Counted from the first letter of the stretch, positions 860 to 21,378 are shown. The stretch: 32,000 bases of DNA from Promethearchaeota archaeon (GCA_016933055.1 JAFGBS010000009.1:390001-422000), one strand, 5' to 3'. Notes: generated from the letters alone by a model not told the origin. Made by a program: numbers and translations.

Positions 860-2140
860 TTACGGATTGATTGTATGAAGCGACTTAACCTCACGGCTTT
901 TCATCAACACGTCAGAAATCAAAGTGGCGATCTTATCTAACTCCAATTGTTGTCCTTTTAATTTATTTACTAATAACTGGAGCTGTTTTTCAGTACCAAT
1001 GAGAATAACCTTCTGATTTTTTTCATATTTTTGATTTTCAGTCGTTACTACATTTTTATGAATTGCAACGTCTCCACCACGCGCCAAGAGCTCCTGCTTT
1101 AAAACTAAAGCTTGAGGGGCGGTGATATTTTCTAGTAGGATTAATTTCGTGATCATTTTGGTATCCATGATACGAGCGCCAGCGGGGGTGACCCCCATTC
1201 TTCGTAAATAATACCGAGCTTCAATCGGTTCGCGAATGCATGATATAAATTCTGCCGTAATTCCATCTAATTCAGAAACGAGCGGATTTTTCCTAATAGC
1301 ATATGCCATTGTAACCATCTCTTGTAATTCATCCGTAACGTCATGGGTGCGAATAATATGTGCCCCATTATAGACTGCAATCGTTGTCGCAGCTAGCGTT
1401 CCAATCAACCGATCTTCCGGATCTTTTTTATCCAATACCGAGCCTATAAAGGACTTTCTAGAAATTCCAACTAAAATGGGCTGGAGGAATACCCGAAATC
1501 GTTCTAGATCATCAATAATCGACAAATCATACTCGAAGGTTTTTTCAGGTACCCATTTGCCAATTCCAGGATCGATAATTAATTTATTCATATCATAATT
1601 TTTCTGTTCTAAAGTCTGTATACTCTCGAACAAGGATTCGAGAATCGAATCTACGGATAATAAATCTCCTGGTCTTTTATGTGACGCCATTAAAATTAAA
1701 GGGATATCATGGTCAATAATGGTGTCAATCATATGTGGATCAATCTTCAATCCAGAGACATCGTTAATGATAACTCTCAAATTTTCTTGTTGCAGTTGAG
1801 TTATGCAATATTTTGCTATATCAGAATATTGGGTATCAACTGAAATAATGATATCTTTTGGTAAAGACTCACATAATGTAGAGATATAAGGTTTCAATCG
1901 TTCTAATTCTTCCTCTCGAGTAATAGATATCACGCCAGGTGCTGTAGATCGGGATCCGACATCTAATATCTTCACACCCTTTTTCAAAAAGTCTTTAACA
2001 ACACCATTAAAAATATCTGGTTGGATAACACTTCCCTTGTAAAAACTTTCTGGAGACAGATTAAGAATACCTTGAAATAATGGGGGTGTTTGATCACCGA
2101 TGAAGAAATCGGGGAAAATATCTCGATGAATTATAACCAT
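860..2140 (-). CDS. folP: Dihydropteroate synthase (archaeal type) with extra C-terminal domain
   Basis: Motifs GILNLSPESFY, ILDVGSRST, ISVDT, INDVSG, IIDPGIG, VGISRKSFIG, IIRTHDV; about 130-aa C-terminal domain containing LVLKQELLARGGDVA. Confidence 0.9.
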   Translation of the reverse strand: MVIIHRDIFPDFFIGDQTPPLFQGILNLSPESFYKGSVIQPDIFNGVVKDFLKKGVKILDVGSRSTAPGVISITREEELERLKPYISTLCESLPKDIIISVDTQYSDIAKYCITQLQQENLRVIINDVSGLKIDPHMIDTIIDHDIPLILMASHKRPGDLLSVDSILESLFESIQTLEQKNYDMNKLIIDPGIGKWVPEKTFEYDLSIIDDLERFRVFLQPILVGISRKSFIGSVLDKKDPEDRLIGTLAATTIAVYNGAHIIRTHDVTDELQEMVTMAYAIRKNPLVSELDGITAEFISCIREPIEARYYLRRMGVTPAGARIMDTKMITKLILLENITAPQALVLKQELLARGGDVAIHKNVVTTENQKYEKNQKVILIGTEKQLQLLVNKLKGQQLELDKIATLISDVLMKSREVKSLHTINP

Positions 2141-15322: not shown

Positions 15323-15455
15323 CGCAAATTTTATTTTTTCTTTCTTTTTCTGTAAAAAAATTTCAAAACAAAAGCAAAACCCCATTATATCCTTTATTTT
15401 CTAATCCTTAGGATTATGTATGTTATTCAATTGGTATACTTAAACAATGATTTAA

Positions 15456-15824
15456 GTGAAAAAAATGACAGAAGAACATAAAGAAAAAAAACGAACACAT
15501 AAACATAAAAGACAAGTTTGGGTTAATGCAAATAGTCCTAATGATTGTGGTTGCCAAGATCCTGATGATGAATTAATGATATTAAATTATGAAATTCCTG
15601 GAGCGAATAAAGAAAAGATCCATCTTCATGTTGTGGAAAATGGCCTACGTTTGGTTGCACCGAGATCAGATGAAGACTATGATTATGTCAGCACCTATAG
15701 TTTTACTTGTCCTGCAGATCCCAAAAATGTCAAAGCTAAGTATAATGATGGTATTTTAGAGGTTCACATACCATACAATTGCCCAAATCCGTATAAAGAT
15801 ATACCACCTGTAACCATAGAATAG
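15456..15824 (+). CDS. Hsp20/alpha-crystallin small heat-shock protein
   Basis: EIPGANKEKIHLHV and VKAKYNDGILEVHIP motifs; alternative ATG at 15465. Confidence 0.85.
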   Translation: MKKMTEEHKEKKRTHKHKRQVWVNANSPNDCGCQDPDDELMILNYEIPGANKEKIHLHVVENGLRLVAPRSDEDYDYVSTYSFTCPADPKNVKAKYNDGILEVHIPYNCPNPYKDIPPVTIE

Positions 15825-16323
15825 TATTCCAATTATTTTTTATCTTTATGTATAGGTACAACCCCCTTATAAAATTCGAAAAATTGTATTTGATTAATCA
15901 ACATCTATCCCATATCCTCCACGCTTGTTTATGGTCCATCTATGTTATTTTTTTCTATACACCCTATTTCTACGGTAAATTGTTCCTTTTCACACCTATC
16001 CCTATTGGTCCCATGAATTGGAATTTGTATCCCGTGAATGAAATGTTATCCGAACACCCTATACCCGCATGGTCCCTCTCATTTTAATACCAAGTTTTTC
16101 ATGTAAAGTTAGCTAAAAGGGACTTTTTGGGATTTTGGCCATTGCATGATAATTAATCCTTACTAACGTTACAAATGTGAAAGAGAACGGTATGAGTTAG
16201 GTTGAAAATAGTAGGATATGTGTTGACTAATTTAATTCTTTTCCATAATACGATAAAATTGTATTTTTATTTCGATTTTCTGTATCACTATCGTTCTTCA
16301 TTATTATTTACTAATTAAAGAGG

Positions 16324-18012
16324 TTGATTCAGACGAGTTTAGAATTTAGTCGAATAGATGGAAAAAATGTCCACTTTTTTTTAATCGAACCAGAATATCC
16401 CATAGAATTTGAGTTCAATTCTGTTAATGAAACAAAATTGCACTATCCATGGAGAAATGGAGTTGATTCCCCCTACATAGCCCAACTGGAGCAAAATCTT
16501 AAGAAAGTTCGAAAAAAGACTCCAGCGACATTACTATTTATGGAAAGAGGAACTTCCCCACATCCTGATTTTCAACACGTAAGTATTGAAAATCTTGCAT
16601 ATACTATTGGAATACCCTTTAGATATATTGATCTACCAACAGATCTGATGGAAACTCAATTTTTAAGTTTAAAAAGACAATTGGACTATATTCAAAAATT
16701 GGAGAGTAAACGATCATCATTTCAAAATAAGGAAGGATATGAGGTTGAGGTCAGAAATTTAGATGCGTTAATTTTAGATGCTCGAGATTCTTTGAAGAAA
16801 GATCATTCCGAACTTGTTGGGAACAAGCGCCCACTATGGATTATGTTTCAAATAATAGAGATATTACGTCAATGGGATTCCAAAGAAATAAGCTGTATTC
16901 TCATTATTTCCAAAATAATGCACAAGGCAATATTAAAGATTGCAAATCAATTAGAATTGCAAACTGATCAATATTGTTTGTATCGAGACGTAATAGAATC
17001 TGTGGATGTATCAAATTTTACGAACGCCATTGAAAATAAGGATTTAATTCAGTATTCTCTTAAAAAAGAGAAAAAAAAGCAAGATAAAAAATACTTACTC
17101 TATATGGTCGATACAGATCCAATTGCAACACCTTATGATATTACTATGGCTTATGATGCAGGATATGACGCAGTGATCCATTTTGAAGATGTAAAACCAG
17201 AAGAAACCACCGGTTTAATACAAGATCTTGTGTTTTCTCGCAGAAATAATAAATATACTACACTGTTTTTAAACGGAAGGCATGAGAATGTGTTTTTTGA
17301 AGTATTAGACCGGGTCAAAAAATCAATGTTTGGTCCCTTTAAGGTATCTACAGTAATCGATCCCCGGGGAGCATGTTCAGGAGCGGGTGCTGCAGTTGCA
17401 CTTATTGAAGATCTGGTATATACACGAAGATTAGGAAAAATTGAGAATAAGTCAGTGGTAGTATTTGGTGGAACGGGACCTTTCGGACACCTAATAGCGA
17501 CATTGTTGTACAAAGATGGATGCGACGTATGTATTGTAGAAACATGGAATCAACGAGACAAGAAATTTTTAAAGGAATTTCTAGATTATACGAAAAAAAC
17601 CTATAATGTACGTCTTACAGGTGCACTTGCTTTTGATGAGGAATCGAAACTTCATCTTGCTCAAAATGCTGATGTTATTATCTCAACTGCTGCTCCTGGA
17701 ATTCAAATTCTGGATAAAAATATCATGCAACAAATTCCTAAAGGAAAACTAGCGATTGATACCAATATGGTCATACCAGCAGGTATTGAAGGTATTTCAG
17801 AGGACATGGATGGGCAAGAGATTTATCCAGGAATTTTTGCAATTGGTGCATTGACTATCGGGGCTCTTAAATACAAAGTAGAAATGAAAATGTTGAAAGA
17901 CGCGAAAAATGCAAAATCAGGATTTTTTGACTTATATTACGCAGTAAAAGCAGCAAAAAGAATCTTGAATTTACCCGAGAAGAAAAAAAGATTAGATGAA
18001 CGCTTAAAATAA
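16324..18012 (+). CDS. MtdA/MtdB-family methylene-H4MPT/H4F dehydrogenase fused to an unknown N-terminal domain of about 250 aa
   Basis: From about aa 255: YLLYMVDTDPIATPYDITMAYDAGYD, MFGPFKVSTVIDPRG, VFGGTGPFG, DTNMVIPAGIEGI, AIGALTIGALKYK; TTG start. Confidence 0.82.
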   Translation: MIQTSLEFSRIDGKNVHFFLIEPEYPIEFEFNSVNETKLHYPWRNGVDSPYIAQLEQNLKKVRKKTPATLLFMERGTSPHPDFQHVSIENLAYTIGIPFRYIDLPTDLMETQFLSLKRQLDYIQKLESKRSSFQNKEGYEVEVRNLDALILDARDSLKKDHSELVGNKRPLWIMFQIIEILRQWDSKEISCILIISKIMHKAILKIANQLELQTDQYCLYRDVIESVDVSNFTNAIENKDLIQYSLKKEKKKQDKKYLLYMVDTDPIATPYDITMAYDAGYDAVIHFEDVKPEETTGLIQDLVFSRRNNKYTTLFLNGRHENVFFEVLDRVKKSMFGPFKVSTVIDPRGACSGAGAAVALIEDLVYTRRLGKIENKSVVVFGGTGPFGHLIATLLYKDGCDVCIVETWNQRDKKFLKEFLDYTKKTYNVRLTGALAFDEESKLHLAQNADVIISTAAPGIQILDKNIMQQIPKGKLAIDTNMVIPAGIEGISEDMDGQEIYPGIFAIGALTIGALKYKVEMKMLKDAKNAKSGFFDLYYAVKAAKRILNLPEKKKRLDERLK

Positions 18013-18014
18013 GG

Positions 18015-19022
18015 GTGGGCTTCTTGCAAATCGACGAAAATATATATAAAAAAGTGATGTTACAGAATAATTTGAATAATTGTTCCGAAACAATCCTCAA
18101 AATAAAGGATAAACGCAAAAAATATCTGCTGTTTATGATAGATACGGATCCTAAAGCTTCCCCCTTTGACATCAATATGGCATATGAATCAGGTTACGAT
18201 ATGTGTGTGCATTTTGCAGGTTTGACCCCTGAACAAGCTATGGGATTTATGTTAGATCTCTATTATGCGCGTTCAGAAAAAAACCATAAATATACAACGA
18301 TGTTTCTGAACGGAAAAGATTTTGATAAAGTGTATGATGCATTCCATAAGGCGAAAATTGCAATGGGAGGAGATATACGGATTCCCTTAGTGATCGATCC
18401 AAGAGGAGCTGCAACGACTGCAGCCTCCTTAGTCGCAAAAATGAAAAATGTCTTTTTACAAAAAGGGGAACAACTAAAAAATCAAAAAATTACGATTCTC
18501 GGAGGTACAGGTCCCGTGGGACGTATTGCAGGTGCTTTATGCAATAGAGAAGGGGCAGATACATATATAATTGAAACTTGGGATCAACGTAATCAAGAAT
18601 GGCTTGATAATTTCATCCATAAATTCAATCAAGAATATGATGTGGCACTGAAAAGTTTGTTATTGACTAATGAAACAAAACGCTTGGAGCACTGTATGGA
18701 TACAGACTTGATCATATCTTGTGGTGCAGCCGGTATTGAATTACTTGGTACAAATTCGATGGAAATTCTTTCTCAGAAAGCTCCAGGAAAGCAATGTGTA
18801 GATATCAATTTGGTTCCCCCTCCCGGTATTAATGGGATTAAACCAGATTCAGATGGAGGAGAAATTTTTCCCGGTATTTACGGATATGGTCCATTAAATA
18901 TCGGACAAATTAAATTTCAAACGGAAATCGCGATTTTAGAAGAAGCTCGAAAAGCGGAATATGGTATTTTTGATTTTAATCGAGCCTATGAAATAGCAAA
19001 AAAAATGATAAAAATAGATTAA
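18015..19022 (+). CDS. MtdA/MtdB-family methylene-H4MPT/H4F dehydrogenase (paralog 2)
   Basis: LFMIDTDPKASPFDINMAYESGYD, IDPRGAATTAA, ILGGTGPVG, DINLVPPPGINGI, GYGPLNIGQIK; GTG start 2 nt after the upstream stop. Confidence 0.87.
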   Translation: MGFLQIDENIYKKVMLQNNLNNCSETILKIKDKRKKYLLFMIDTDPKASPFDINMAYESGYDMCVHFAGLTPEQAMGFMLDLYYARSEKNHKYTTMFLNGKDFDKVYDAFHKAKIAMGGDIRIPLVIDPRGAATTAASLVAKMKNVFLQKGEQLKNQKITILGGTGPVGRIAGALCNREGADTYIIETWDQRNQEWLDNFIHKFNQEYDVALKSLLLTNETKRLEHCMDTDLIISCGAAGIELLGTNSMEILSQKAPGKQCVDINLVPPPGINGIKPDSDGGEIFPGIYGYGPLNIGQIKFQTEIAILEEARKAEYGIFDFNRAYEIAKKMIKID

Positions 19023-19038
19023 ATCGGATTTCCTTGTC

Positions 19039-19959
19039 TTACTCCTTCGATTTTTTCTTATTTTTTTTTCTTTCAATAATTTCTTTCGCAAAATCATAAT
19101 ATTCAAGGAAAGAAAAAATTTCAAAACCCGATGCATCCATCATTTCTTGCAGAACCGTTTTTTCTACTTTTAATTTAACCTGACCAGTAGAGAGTGCACC
19201 AAAAATATAAGAATTCTCATATTCTACTCCCTTCCACATAGGTTCGATTCCCTCTATACCCAACGGAGGTACGGCATTTGCATCTGCATAGATTTTATTT
19301 TCAGGAATTTTTTGTAAAGTAGTCGCTGAAATCAGTTGTACACCAGGGGCACCACATGTGAATACAAGATTTTTGTCTTCGCATAATTCCACTCGATGTA
19401 TTTCATCTCCCATGGCTTCGGGTTTAATATCCACTCGATACGTCATATTCAATTCATTTGCTGCTCTTTCTGCTCTTTCTTGCGAACGGGATAATAGAGT
19501 TGTTTCTGCTCCTCCTTTAGCGCACAATACCGATACAGTCTGTCCTACCATGCCTGTTCCTGCAAAGATAATCACTTTGCAGTCTTTAAGGGATTTTTTT
19601 TCTATTAGGTGGAGATAAGCTTCTACTTGAGCAACCAAAGTGGCTCCCGTTGTATATCCTCCTCTTGGATCAATGCAAGTAGTCAATTCAAAACCTGGTA
19701 TCATACTTTCTCTTGCAATGTCTAAAATTCTCTTTAGTTGGGCGTGATTTGACCCATTTAAAAAGATTTTTGTATTTTTTGCCCCCTTTTCGCCTCTGGA
19801 AAACATAGCATCTTCAATTATTCGCACTATATTCCATTCATTAATCCCTCCCATTGGGACAACAATATCATATCCCGCATCATATGCAACATTGATGTCG
19901 AACGGAGAGGGTAATGGATCTGTATCTAAGAGGTACAGAATCATTTTTTTATCAGACAT
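19039..19959 (-). CDS. mtdA: MtdA-like NADP-type methylene-H4MPT/H4F dehydrogenase (paralog 3, closest to canonical)
   Basis: LDTDPLPSPFDINVAYDAG, FSRGEKGAKNTKIF, DPRGGYTT, FAGTGMVG, LSRSQER, DANAVPPLGIEGI, FGALSTGQVKLK; MtdA versus MtdB not resolvable by eye. Confidence 0.88.
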   Translation of the reverse strand: MSDKKMILYLLDTDPLPSPFDINVAYDAGYDIVVPMGGINEWNIVRIIEDAMFSRGEKGAKNTKIFLNGSNHAQLKRILDIARESMIPGFELTTCIDPRGGYTTGATLVAQVEAYLHLIEKKSLKDCKVIIFAGTGMVGQTVSVLCAKGGAETTLLSRSQERAERAANELNMTYRVDIKPEAMGDEIHRVELCEDKNLVFTCGAPGVQLISATTLQKIPENKIYADANAVPPLGIEGIEPMWKGVEYENSYIFGALSTGQVKLKVEKTVLQEMMDASGFEIFSFLEYYDFAKEIIERKKNKKKSKE

Positions 19960-20025
19960 TTGAACATCATAAAAAATCTAAAGCAATTCCTTTTAAACTT
20001 GAACGAATTTTTTGTGAGGAAAAAA

Positions 20026-20655
20026 CTAAAGGCAAATAGTCATCCAATTTAAATATAAACCTGAGAGATACCGATTAAATATAACCAAATTTAATAACCC
20101 TAGGCATAATCCCATTAACATTCCTACAATAACATCACTTAGAAAATGTACACCTAGATGAATTCTCGACACGAAAAGGAAAGGTAAAAGGGCAAGAAAG
20201 GGTAATAATGCCCAAAACCCAAAATAAAAATAGAAAAAAATACTTTCCATTACCCAAAAATACATATGGCCGGATGGAAAAGATTCTTGTCTCTTGGAAA
20301 TATAAGGTTCACGATTTATGAACTCTTGTCGGGCAAACACCCGCAATTTTTCATCCATATAAGGACGTTTTCGTCGGATAATTCGTTTTAAAACCGAAAT
20401 TGTTAATAAGGAACCTATAATACCCGTAAACAGTAAAACTGAGAAATTCTCGATATTTTGATCGAAAAAAATCCCATAAATAAATAGTATCAAACTAAAT
20501 AATGCCCAAAATTGAATGGTACCTAGTAAAGAAATAATTTTAAGCGGTAAAGTAAGTTTAGGATTCAAGTTGTAAAACCATTTCGCACTTTTATAATCCG
20601 TATCAATAATCCATTGGAGTATCTGGTTAGCATGCGATGTATGGTTATTTTTCAT
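20026..20655 (-). CDS. PAP2-family membrane phosphatase
   Basis: KRIIRRKRP (C1), SFPSGH (C2), SRIHLGVHFLSDV (C3); TM helices. Confidence 0.93.
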   Translation of the reverse strand: MKNNHTSHANQILQWIIDTDYKSAKWFYNLNPKLTLPLKIISLLGTIQFWALFSLILFIYGIFFDQNIENFSVLLFTGIIGSLLTISVLKRIIRRKRPYMDEKLRVFARQEFINREPYISKRQESFPSGHMYFWVMESIFFYFYFGFWALLPFLALLPFLFVSRIHLGVHFLSDVIVGMLMGLCLGLLNLVIFNRYLSGLYLNWMTICL

Positions 20656-20688
20656 TTAATGGATGTAATTTTATGAAGTTTTTTAAAT

Positions 20689-21378
20689 TTAAGTAAGATC
20701 TAAAATCGAAAAGAGCTGTTCCAAATTATCTATGATATAATCTGGTTTGTGCTCCCAATGTTTATGGGATTTTTCCCATCTTTTTACCCAAATCGAGTTG
20801 ATTTTCGCATTCTTTCCCGCAGATATGTCAAATGGGCTATCTCCTACGATGTAAACGTCCCTTTTATCAAATTTATAATCCTTTGATAATCGTTGCAATG
20901 TCAGCAATATTTGTCCAGGGTTTGGTTTACATTCTTCTTGACTATCACCTAAAGCTAATATTTCTTGAAAGTAAAAGTCTAATCCAAAAGCGTCTAATTC
21001 AAATCTGGCAATCTTTAACGATGAATTTGTGATTAAAAGCAAGTAGGTATTGCCAAGTTCTTTTAGTTTAACTAAGGTAGGTATAACATCCCCAAATAAC
21101 CGAAGATCCCCTTGAGCATGAAGTATTTTTCGCTGTTCTAAATCAAGTTTGTCAAAGCTTATCCAAAATTTCACGGGATCTAAGAAATTCCACGATCTTA
21201 ATAGTTGTTTGTAATCAGAGTTCCGCCACAACCGATCTCTTTCCTCTTTAACGGGTGGGGGGATGTTAAATTCATTAAAAACTTGAACAATGATATTGTC
21301 GAAGAAATTATGACTGTTCTTAATATGAACTAGAGTATTATCTAAATCAAAAAATATAATAGCTTGAAGAAATTTCAT
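20689..21378 (-). CDS. HAD-superfamily hydrolase (PGPase-like)
   Basis: FFDLDNTL (motif I), LITNS, CKPNP, IVGDSPFDISAGKNA; ATG 21378 preferred because the TTG at 21417 overlaps the upstream gene. Confidence 0.9.
   Translation of the reverse strand: MKFLQAIIFFDLDNTLVHIKNSHNFFDNIIVQVFNEFNIPPPVKEERDRLWRNSDYKQLLRSWNFLDPVKFWISFDKLDLEQRKILHAQGDLRLFGDVIPTLVKLKELGNTYLLLITNSSLKIARFELDAFGLDFYFQEILALGDSQEECKPNPGQILLTLQRLSKDYKFDKRDVYIVGDSPFDISAGKNAKINSIWVKRWEKSHKHWEHKPDYIIDNLEQLFSILDLT

Follow-up and report, generated by a model that had tools for sequence, protein, structure and literature searches.

The stretch considered here is a window of 32,000 nucleotides from the assembly of a Promethearchaeota archaeon (GCA_016933055.1, JAFGBS010000009.1:390001-422000; G000:C17:390001-422000 in our coordinates; genome of 3.76 Mb, 91% complete, 34% G+C), and our subject is a cluster of three MtdA/B-family genes within it, hereafter P1, P2 and P3. 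Close homologs are labelled Promethearchaeota or Lokiarchaeota by NCBI, and the host is a Lokiarchaeia-type Asgard archaeon. A first-pass annotation made from the DNA had read the locus as three genes of this family, two in tandem and one convergent, and the open reading frames, the Pfam matches and the alignment to MtdA agree with that description: P1 and P2 are separated by 2 nucleotides (18013-18014), P2 and P3 by 16 (19023-19038). Counted from the first letter of the window, the features are as follows.

15825-16323, no strand: AT-rich spacer upstream of P1, which together with P1 and P2 makes up what syntenic relatives lack between HSP20 and P3
16324-18012, plus strand: P1, a long-form MtdA-family gene with a TraB/ChaN-like N-terminal domain and a Glu-type Mtd domain, 562 residues from a TTG start
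16324-17088, plus strand: N-terminal domain of P1 (residues 1-255), which keeps the long-form invariants E22, E24, E74, G76, D103, R169 and W172
17467-17487, plus strand: Rossmann glycine motif of P1, GGTGPFG
17536-17547, plus strand: VETW of P1, whose Glu406 ends strand beta2 (DSSP strand 401-406, DVCIVE, in the AlphaFold2 model)
18015-19022, plus strand: P2, a short Glu-type MtdA-family gene, 335 residues from GTG
18570-18581, plus strand: IETW of P2, with Glu187 after beta2
19039-19959, minus strand: P3, a short Arg-type MtdA-family gene of a separate Asgard clade, 306 residues
19483-19494, minus strand: LSRS of P3, whose Arg158 is aligned to the Arg of the GRK motif of MtdA

Two of the start codons are uncertain. 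The TTG of P1 directly abuts AAGAGG and is followed by the codon ATT (16315-16330), while for P2 (18015-18140) the GTG lying 2 nucleotides past the P1 stop gives 335 residues, the orthologs having 332-335; the gene call of the source gives P2 295 residues, which would cut strand beta1, and an in-frame ATG lies at 18057.

MtdA is an NADP-dependent dehydrogenase of methylene-tetrahydromethanopterin (methylene-H4MPT) and methylene-tetrahydrofolate (methylene-H4F), and its fold class is related to that of FolD. All three genes belong to its family, with matches to Pfam Mpt_N (PF09176) of 77.8, 52.3 and 74.1 bits for P1, P2 and P3, respectively (gathering cut-off 27). These are the only Mpt_N matches in the 3.76-Mb genome, so the clustering of the trio is not due to chance. 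No NCBIfam model matches any of the three, nor do the FolD domains PF00763/PF02882 (THF_DHG_CYH). Aligned with the solved MtdA (1LU9/6TLK), P3 is the nearest of the three (161 bits, E 3.8e-46), followed by the Mtd part of P1 (118 bits, E 3.6e-33) and P2 (114 bits, E 6.4e-32), and all three alignments span the chain from residues 2-3 to 285-288. The Rossmann GxGxxG motif takes the form GGTGPFG in P1, GGTGPVG in P2 and AGTGMVG in P3, and the AlphaFold2 model of P1 gives the expected beta-alpha-beta pattern. R55, D97, G100, D226, N228 and K262 (P3 numbering) are kept throughout the trio together with the glycine motif. P3 keeps nearly all family-invariant residues; P1 has changed at four positions whose conservation elsewhere in the family stands at 99-100% (F to Y, TT to SG, V to F, P to I/A), and P2 carries E for D at a 100%-conserved position as well as several changes at positions conserved at 92-96%, including A to P at a 96% position.

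The residues that follow the second Rossmann strand set the three proteins apart. The first-pass annotation had quoted VETW for P1, IETW for P2 and LSRS for P3, and had read them as split signatures that may point to enzymes specific for nicotinamide adenine dinucleotide (NAD) and its phosphate (NADP); the motifs stand exactly at the coordinates listed above, and the split of the signatures is borne out by Glu406 closing beta2 in the model of P1 and by Arg158 of P3 falling on the Arg of GRK. In the ungapped alignment with MtdA, Glu-Thr-Trp of P2 lies opposite Gly-Arg-Lys. We take the Arg of this GRK motif to be the binding site of the NADP 2'-phosphate, and in NAD-preferring Rossmann enzymes an acidic residue at the end of beta2 binds the hydroxyls of the adenosine ribose. 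Judged by these positions, P3 is probably NADP(H)-linked while P1 and P2 are probably NAD(H)-linked. None of the three shows the basic Arg-Lys pair that marks MtdA proper, as P3 keeps the Arg only (SRS) and P1 and P2 have Glu-Thr-Trp.

The genes had been described as methylotroph-type and as a triplication, and the phylogeny overturns both descriptions. Trees of 124 and then 56 representatives divide, with 100/100 support, into a bacterial MtdA/MtdC-like clade, labelled through P0060 (301 bits to MtdA), and a second side that holds P1, P2 and P3; the bacterial MtdB/MtdC clades are labelled provisionally, in part after source names. All three genes thus lie in archaeal clades outside bacterial MtdA/MtdC. 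P3 falls inside its own Asgard clade of proteins of about 305-314 residues (100/100), while P1 and P2 group together as sisters (100/99), each on a long stem (0.5-0.8 substitutions per site), within a large archaeal clade that also holds forms of about 560 residues from Asgard archaea and Bathyarchaeia, called long forms here. Because either P1 or P2 alone joins the same region of the tree when the clade of the other is removed, their sisterhood is not an artefact of long branches, and phmmer, run exhaustively over 1.84 billion representatives, ranked the cluster of P2 first among the matches to the Mtd part of P1 after P1's own (263 bits, all others at or below 238). A recent triplication was considered and rejected, since P3 comes from a different clade than P1 and P2.

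The neighbourhood tells the same history. Three further assemblies share the order in which HSP20, P1 and P2, read in one direction, are met head-on by P3 and PAP2, with proteins 66-88% identical, and the spacing between P1 and P2 varies only from 2 to 14 nucleotides across all assemblies. Two more distant relatives, compared over the locus itself, lack P1 and P2 at this place: L092 keeps orf117-HAD-PAP2-P3-HSP20-SOR-Lrp and L094 keeps P3-SOR-Lrp. As these distant relatives retain the neighbourhood and P3 but not the tandem pair, P3 is the resident gene, and P1 and P2 with their 500-nucleotide upstream spacer are an insertion or deletion beside it, most simply an insertion. What had been called a triplication is thus a resident P3 joined by a tandem pair absent from syntenic relatives.

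All three genes are under purifying selection, with 0.07-0.15 nonsynonymous differences per site (pN) against about 0.7 synonymous differences (pS), values given in place of dN/dS, which is not estimable because synonymous sites are saturated. The Mtd part of P1 (pN 0.07-0.10) is constrained as strongly as P3. Since all three are constrained at present, the fast change must have happened on the stems after the duplication, and the departures of P1 and P2 from strongly conserved residues are part of it. The possibility that they are pseudogenes was rejected, all three frames being open and constrained in four assemblies.

These stems raise the question of whether P1 and P2 still belong to C1 metabolism at all, as the pair could have been neofunctionalised, or become non-catalytic, and act on another substrate together with the N-terminal domain of P1. 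The length of the stems and the changes at family-invariant residues would fit such a departure, as would the fact that the long-form lineage and its N-terminal domain have no assigned function and that most genomes bearing Glu-type genes already have the F420-dependent Mtd (F420-Mtd). However, the residues kept throughout the trio, together with the glycine motif, and the constraint on the Mtd part of P1 speak against it, and the Glu-type operons described below adjoin F420-mtd and ftr; we consider this departure improbable.

P1 is a two-domain protein, whose Mtd part begins near residue 255 and is preceded by an unannotated domain. The AlphaFold2 model of this N-terminal domain is of good quality (predicted local distance difference test of 86), while the predicted template modelling score of full-length P1 is 0.54, too low to fix how its two domains are placed relative to each other. 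The modelled domain resembles the TraB/ChaN proteins and may share the fold of this superfamily: the comparison with ChaN (2g5g) gave Z 9.3 and a root-mean-square deviation of 4.0 over 152 residues, and TM-scores were 0.48/0.51 against the Atlas TraB/GumN clusters and 0.72/0.67 against stand-alone Asgard homologs of the domain of 243/205 residues. No PDB match was returned by Foldseek at E <= 0.001, and no Pfam match was found for 30 members of the domain, even at E <= 1. Orthologs of P1 at 66-77% identity share its length of 562 residues, and the first 35 or so residues of P2 match the linker and the end of the N-terminal domain of long forms. By descent, P1 and P2 arose by tandem duplication within the lineage of Asgard long forms and diverged fast, P1 keeping the TraB/ChaN-like domain and P2 losing it. 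The genome of the window holds neither a second copy of this domain nor its paralog of about 210 residues.

It is worth describing how the domain is arranged elsewhere. In other Lokiarchaeia, what we call the canonical Glu-type operon (L027:2199-4651, L028:3850-6267, L029:2314-8149) runs from a divergent N-domain paralog of about 210 residues to the N-domain and on to the Mtd domain, the N-domain being either a separate gene of 232-243 residues or fused to Mtd; the layout hints at a system of several subunits with two TraB/ChaN-like proteins at its base. In G033 a Glu-type unit and an Arg-type unit of this kind stand side by side. The operon of genus g11 comprises a 209-residue N-domain paralog, a 243-residue stand-alone N-domain and a short Glu-type Mtd, followed by a CDC48-type ATPase gene; some 3.5 kb separate it from F420-mtd and ftr, and an HdrA/MvhD-like gene is nearby. 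Around the operons of L027 (2-1888 and 4714-9410) and L028 (1519-3774 and 6604-9000), a flavoprotein of the HdrA type with ferredoxin and MvhD (FlpD) domains is divergent from the operon, and a CDC48-type AAA ATPase stands directly downstream, adjoined by the F420-dependent mtd and ftr.

Such arrangements bear on a further possibility, namely that P1 and P2 form an obligate hetero-oligomer, in which the two copies of a duplicated homotrimeric ancestor would each retain part of the function and P2 would make use of the N-terminal domain of P1. Elsewhere this domain and a short Glu-type Mtd are fused or adjacent, and here P1 carries the only copy; the two sisters sit on long stems, have stayed 2-14 nucleotides apart in every assembly and are both now under purifying selection, and their departures from invariant residues are complementary. 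Yet the active site of MtdA lies within one subunit, so that complementation across subunits is not required; the glycine motif and most invariant residues are kept in both copies, and a trimer made of two kinds of subunit is awkward. A complex prediction for the Mtd part of P1 with P2 scored 0.23 (mark 0.32) and counts neither way. We consider the heteromer possible, although unlikely.

Copies were next classified by signature in Lokiarchaeia genomes sampled from the class, in which related genomes are not independent of each other. Within the Asgard long-form clade the Glu-type reads V/I-ETW with a 4-residue insert, as opposed to [IT]SRRE without insert for the Arg-type. In each of the 17 classified genomes with at least two copies, a Glu-type copy is paired with an Arg-type one, as neighbours in about 8 of these 17 pairs, and F420-Mtd is usually present as well; the 30 classified single-copy genomes divide into 22 with a Glu-type, 7 with an Arg-type and 1 with a P3-type gene. 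An independent tandem trio of short genes of 304, 316 and 317 residues (Arg-, Glu- and Glu-type) was found in G037 (L026, G037:C4:47500-55500) and G024; its place in the tree is inside the Asgard long-form clade, neither genome yielded an F420-Mtd, and the 8 kb around the trio contain no gene for the N-domain. The same pairing has nevertheless arisen separately, once with the Arg-type that sits inside the long-form clade and once with the deep P3-type clade. Its occurrence in every classified multi-copy genome strengthens the idea of NAD-linked and NADP-linked isoenzymes. The two descents within the trio of the window, the class-wide pairing of Glu-type and Arg-type copies and the tie of the trio to an F420-independent pathway are what the present analysis adds.

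The same pairing might also be read as a transhydrogenase cycle, an idea raised in the first-pass annotation, in which P3 and P1/P2 would run the couple in opposite directions and thereby pass hydride between NADPH and NAD+ through the C1 carrier or, in relatives equipped with F420-Mtd, between NAD(P)+ and F420H2. Methanogens offer a precedent in their Hmd-Mtd cycle, in which two dehydrogenases share the methylene/methenyl couple to shuttle electrons between carriers. The recurrence of two or three enzymes with different carrier signatures per genome, frequently as neighbours, and the proximity of the g11 operon to F420-mtd and ftr would suit it. Against this, isoenzymes with different cofactors are ordinary (MtdA/MtdB) and need no cycle, and P1 and P2 are convergent to P3, so that the trio is not one operon; we hold such a cycle to be quite improbable.

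The C1 metabolism of the genome gives the trio its most plausible place. Among the genes that the first-pass annotation had proposed to look for, mch, ftr and folD are present, while the F420-dependent Mtd (PF01993) was not found in the genome, nor was Mer, and CofH appeared below the cut-off only. Mch, Ftr, FwdA, MetF, CdhC, Fhs, FolD and a CofE-like gene were found, so that the genome has genes of both C1 branches, with Fhs, FolD and MetF on the H4F side and the Mtd trio together with Fwd, Ftr and Mch on the H4MPT side, in addition to carbon monoxide dehydrogenase/acetyl-CoA synthase (CODH/ACS). As F420-Mtd and Mer were not found while the other C1 genes are there, the trio most likely carries the methylene/methenyl step. 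At the scale of the class, 127 of 151 genomes have F420-Mtd; in family f1, to which the genome of the window belongs, it was not found in any of 12 genomes sampled. Of 14 genomes of this family, the same three (G062, G088 and the genome of the window) carry both Mch and Mpt_N genes, while the remaining 11, which include three single-contig genomes, carry neither. A published remark has it that the H4MPT branch was lost in the cultured Lokiarchaeia and close relatives of theirs (PMC12222021), and the co-occurrence in family f1 agrees with this remark, which supports the view that MtdA-type enzymes perform the Mtd step here. As for neighbouring genes, a CofE-like F420 ligase is encoded just upstream of the window (G000:C17:389158-389817) and a 426-residue Pterin_bind protein, similar to dihydropteroate synthase (DHPS) or MtrH, at window positions 860-2140 (minus strand), both about 14-17 kb from the trio.

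Instead of, or besides, the nucleotide, the two types might divide the pterins, one of them acting on methylene-H4F and the other on methylene-H4MPT. The genome does encode both branches, and MtdA of Methylorubrum works with both carriers, H4F and H4MPT (PMC9012536). On the other hand, FolD already covers the H4F step, and the Mtd genes of family f1 track Mch exactly, which points to H4MPT. To our knowledge no sequence signature for the choice of pterin has been described. A split by pterin appears improbable to us.

The reading that we favour, with a probability of roughly 0.55, is that the trio comprises NADP-linked (P3) and NAD-linked (P1/P2) isoenzymes that act on methylene/methenyl-H4MPT as part of a C1 pathway independent of F420. 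Resident P3, with its Arg after beta2, would couple the methylene/methenyl step to NADP(H), and the P1-P2 pair would couple it to NAD(H); the pterin and the direction of flux, like the cofactor preferences, we infer. This reading and the alternatives are not mutually exclusive, and several points weigh against it. At 91% completeness, the genes scored as missing in this genome are to be read as not found. The co-occurrence in family f1 rests on two genera only. We found no assay of any member of the archaeal clades, so that activity and cofactor preference rest on signature residues, and the departures of P1 or P2 from conserved residues could mean altered activity. Finally, most Lokiarchaeia carry Glu-type genes in addition to F420-Mtd; there the Glu-type is not simply the enzyme of the pathway, and its true role may differ.

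In a broader scheme, which we hold to be highly improbable as a whole, the NAD-linked (Glu-type), NADP-linked (Arg-type) and F420-linked dehydrogenases of Lokiarchaeia would exchange electrons through a catalytic C1-pterin pool; such a redox hub would here, where F420-Mtd was not found, have been rebuilt from P3 and a P1-P2 heteromer, with the TraB/ChaN-like domain serving as subunit interface or second active site. The recurrent pairing of Glu-type and Arg-type copies suggests, in any case, how Lokiarchaeia connect their NADH, NADPH and F420 pools.

When the metabolism of Asgard archaea is reconstructed, and in the models of the eukaryotic host derived from such work, it is usual to score the archaeal Wood-Ljungdahl pathway's methyl branch by mtd and mer, both F420-dependent. 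The genome of the window and its near kin would be scored without that step despite having Fwd, Ftr, Mch, MetF, CODH/ACS and MtdA-type genes; as these are kept, the methyl branch may run on pyridine nucleotides. The first-pass annotation knew of no description of an F420-independent Mtd triplication in an archaeon. Our literature searches turned up no publication about enzymes of the MtdA family from Asgard archaea or Bathyarchaeia; in the databases, NCBI already names members in both groups [quoted passage not shown]. The readings set out above are directly testable, the enzymes being of small, soluble types for which spectrophotometric assays exist. Besides the genes discussed, the window encodes an Arf-like GTPase and an intein-bearing gyrase; three metatranscriptome runs of the same study gave nothing on 15400-20700, which has no bearing on expression.

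Among known systems, MtdA of Methylorubrum extorquens AM1 (PDB 1LU9/1LUA, 6TLK, 6TGE) is the natural point of reference. The full-length matches indicate the same two-domain fold, Mpt_N followed by Rossmann, and P3 retains the Arg of GRK, whereas P1 and P2 have Glu-Thr-Trp in place of Gly-Arg-Lys together with a 4-residue insert, and P1 has an extra domain of 250 residues. MtdB of M. extorquens is an NAD(P)-dependent, H4MPT-specific second isoenzyme for the same step, and the division of labour between MtdA and MtdB in Methylorubrum is the physiological analogy that we propose for the NAD/NADP pair; in descent, the bacterial clade of about 305 residues that we take as MtdB (SSRN after beta2; label inferred) branches apart from P1, P2 and P3. 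FolD, a bifunctional methylene-H4F dehydrogenase/cyclohydrolase, catalyses a related reaction and is encoded here by a separate folD gene (contig C27), while the F420-dependent Mtd (PF01993) performs the same reaction step with an unrelated fold. Closest in architecture are the long-form Mtd proteins of Asgard archaea and Bathyarchaeia (about 560 residues), which have the two domains, the invariant N-domain residues and VETW in common with P1, while P2 and P3 are without the domain. P1 differs from them by its long branch, being about 30% identical to other long forms, and by its setting: where long-form operons elsewhere carry the N-domain paralog of about 210 residues or a stand-alone N-domain, P1 is instead followed by its short duplicate P2. 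For a transhydrogenase hub on the C1 carrier, the analogue would be the Hmd-Mtd cycle of methanogens.

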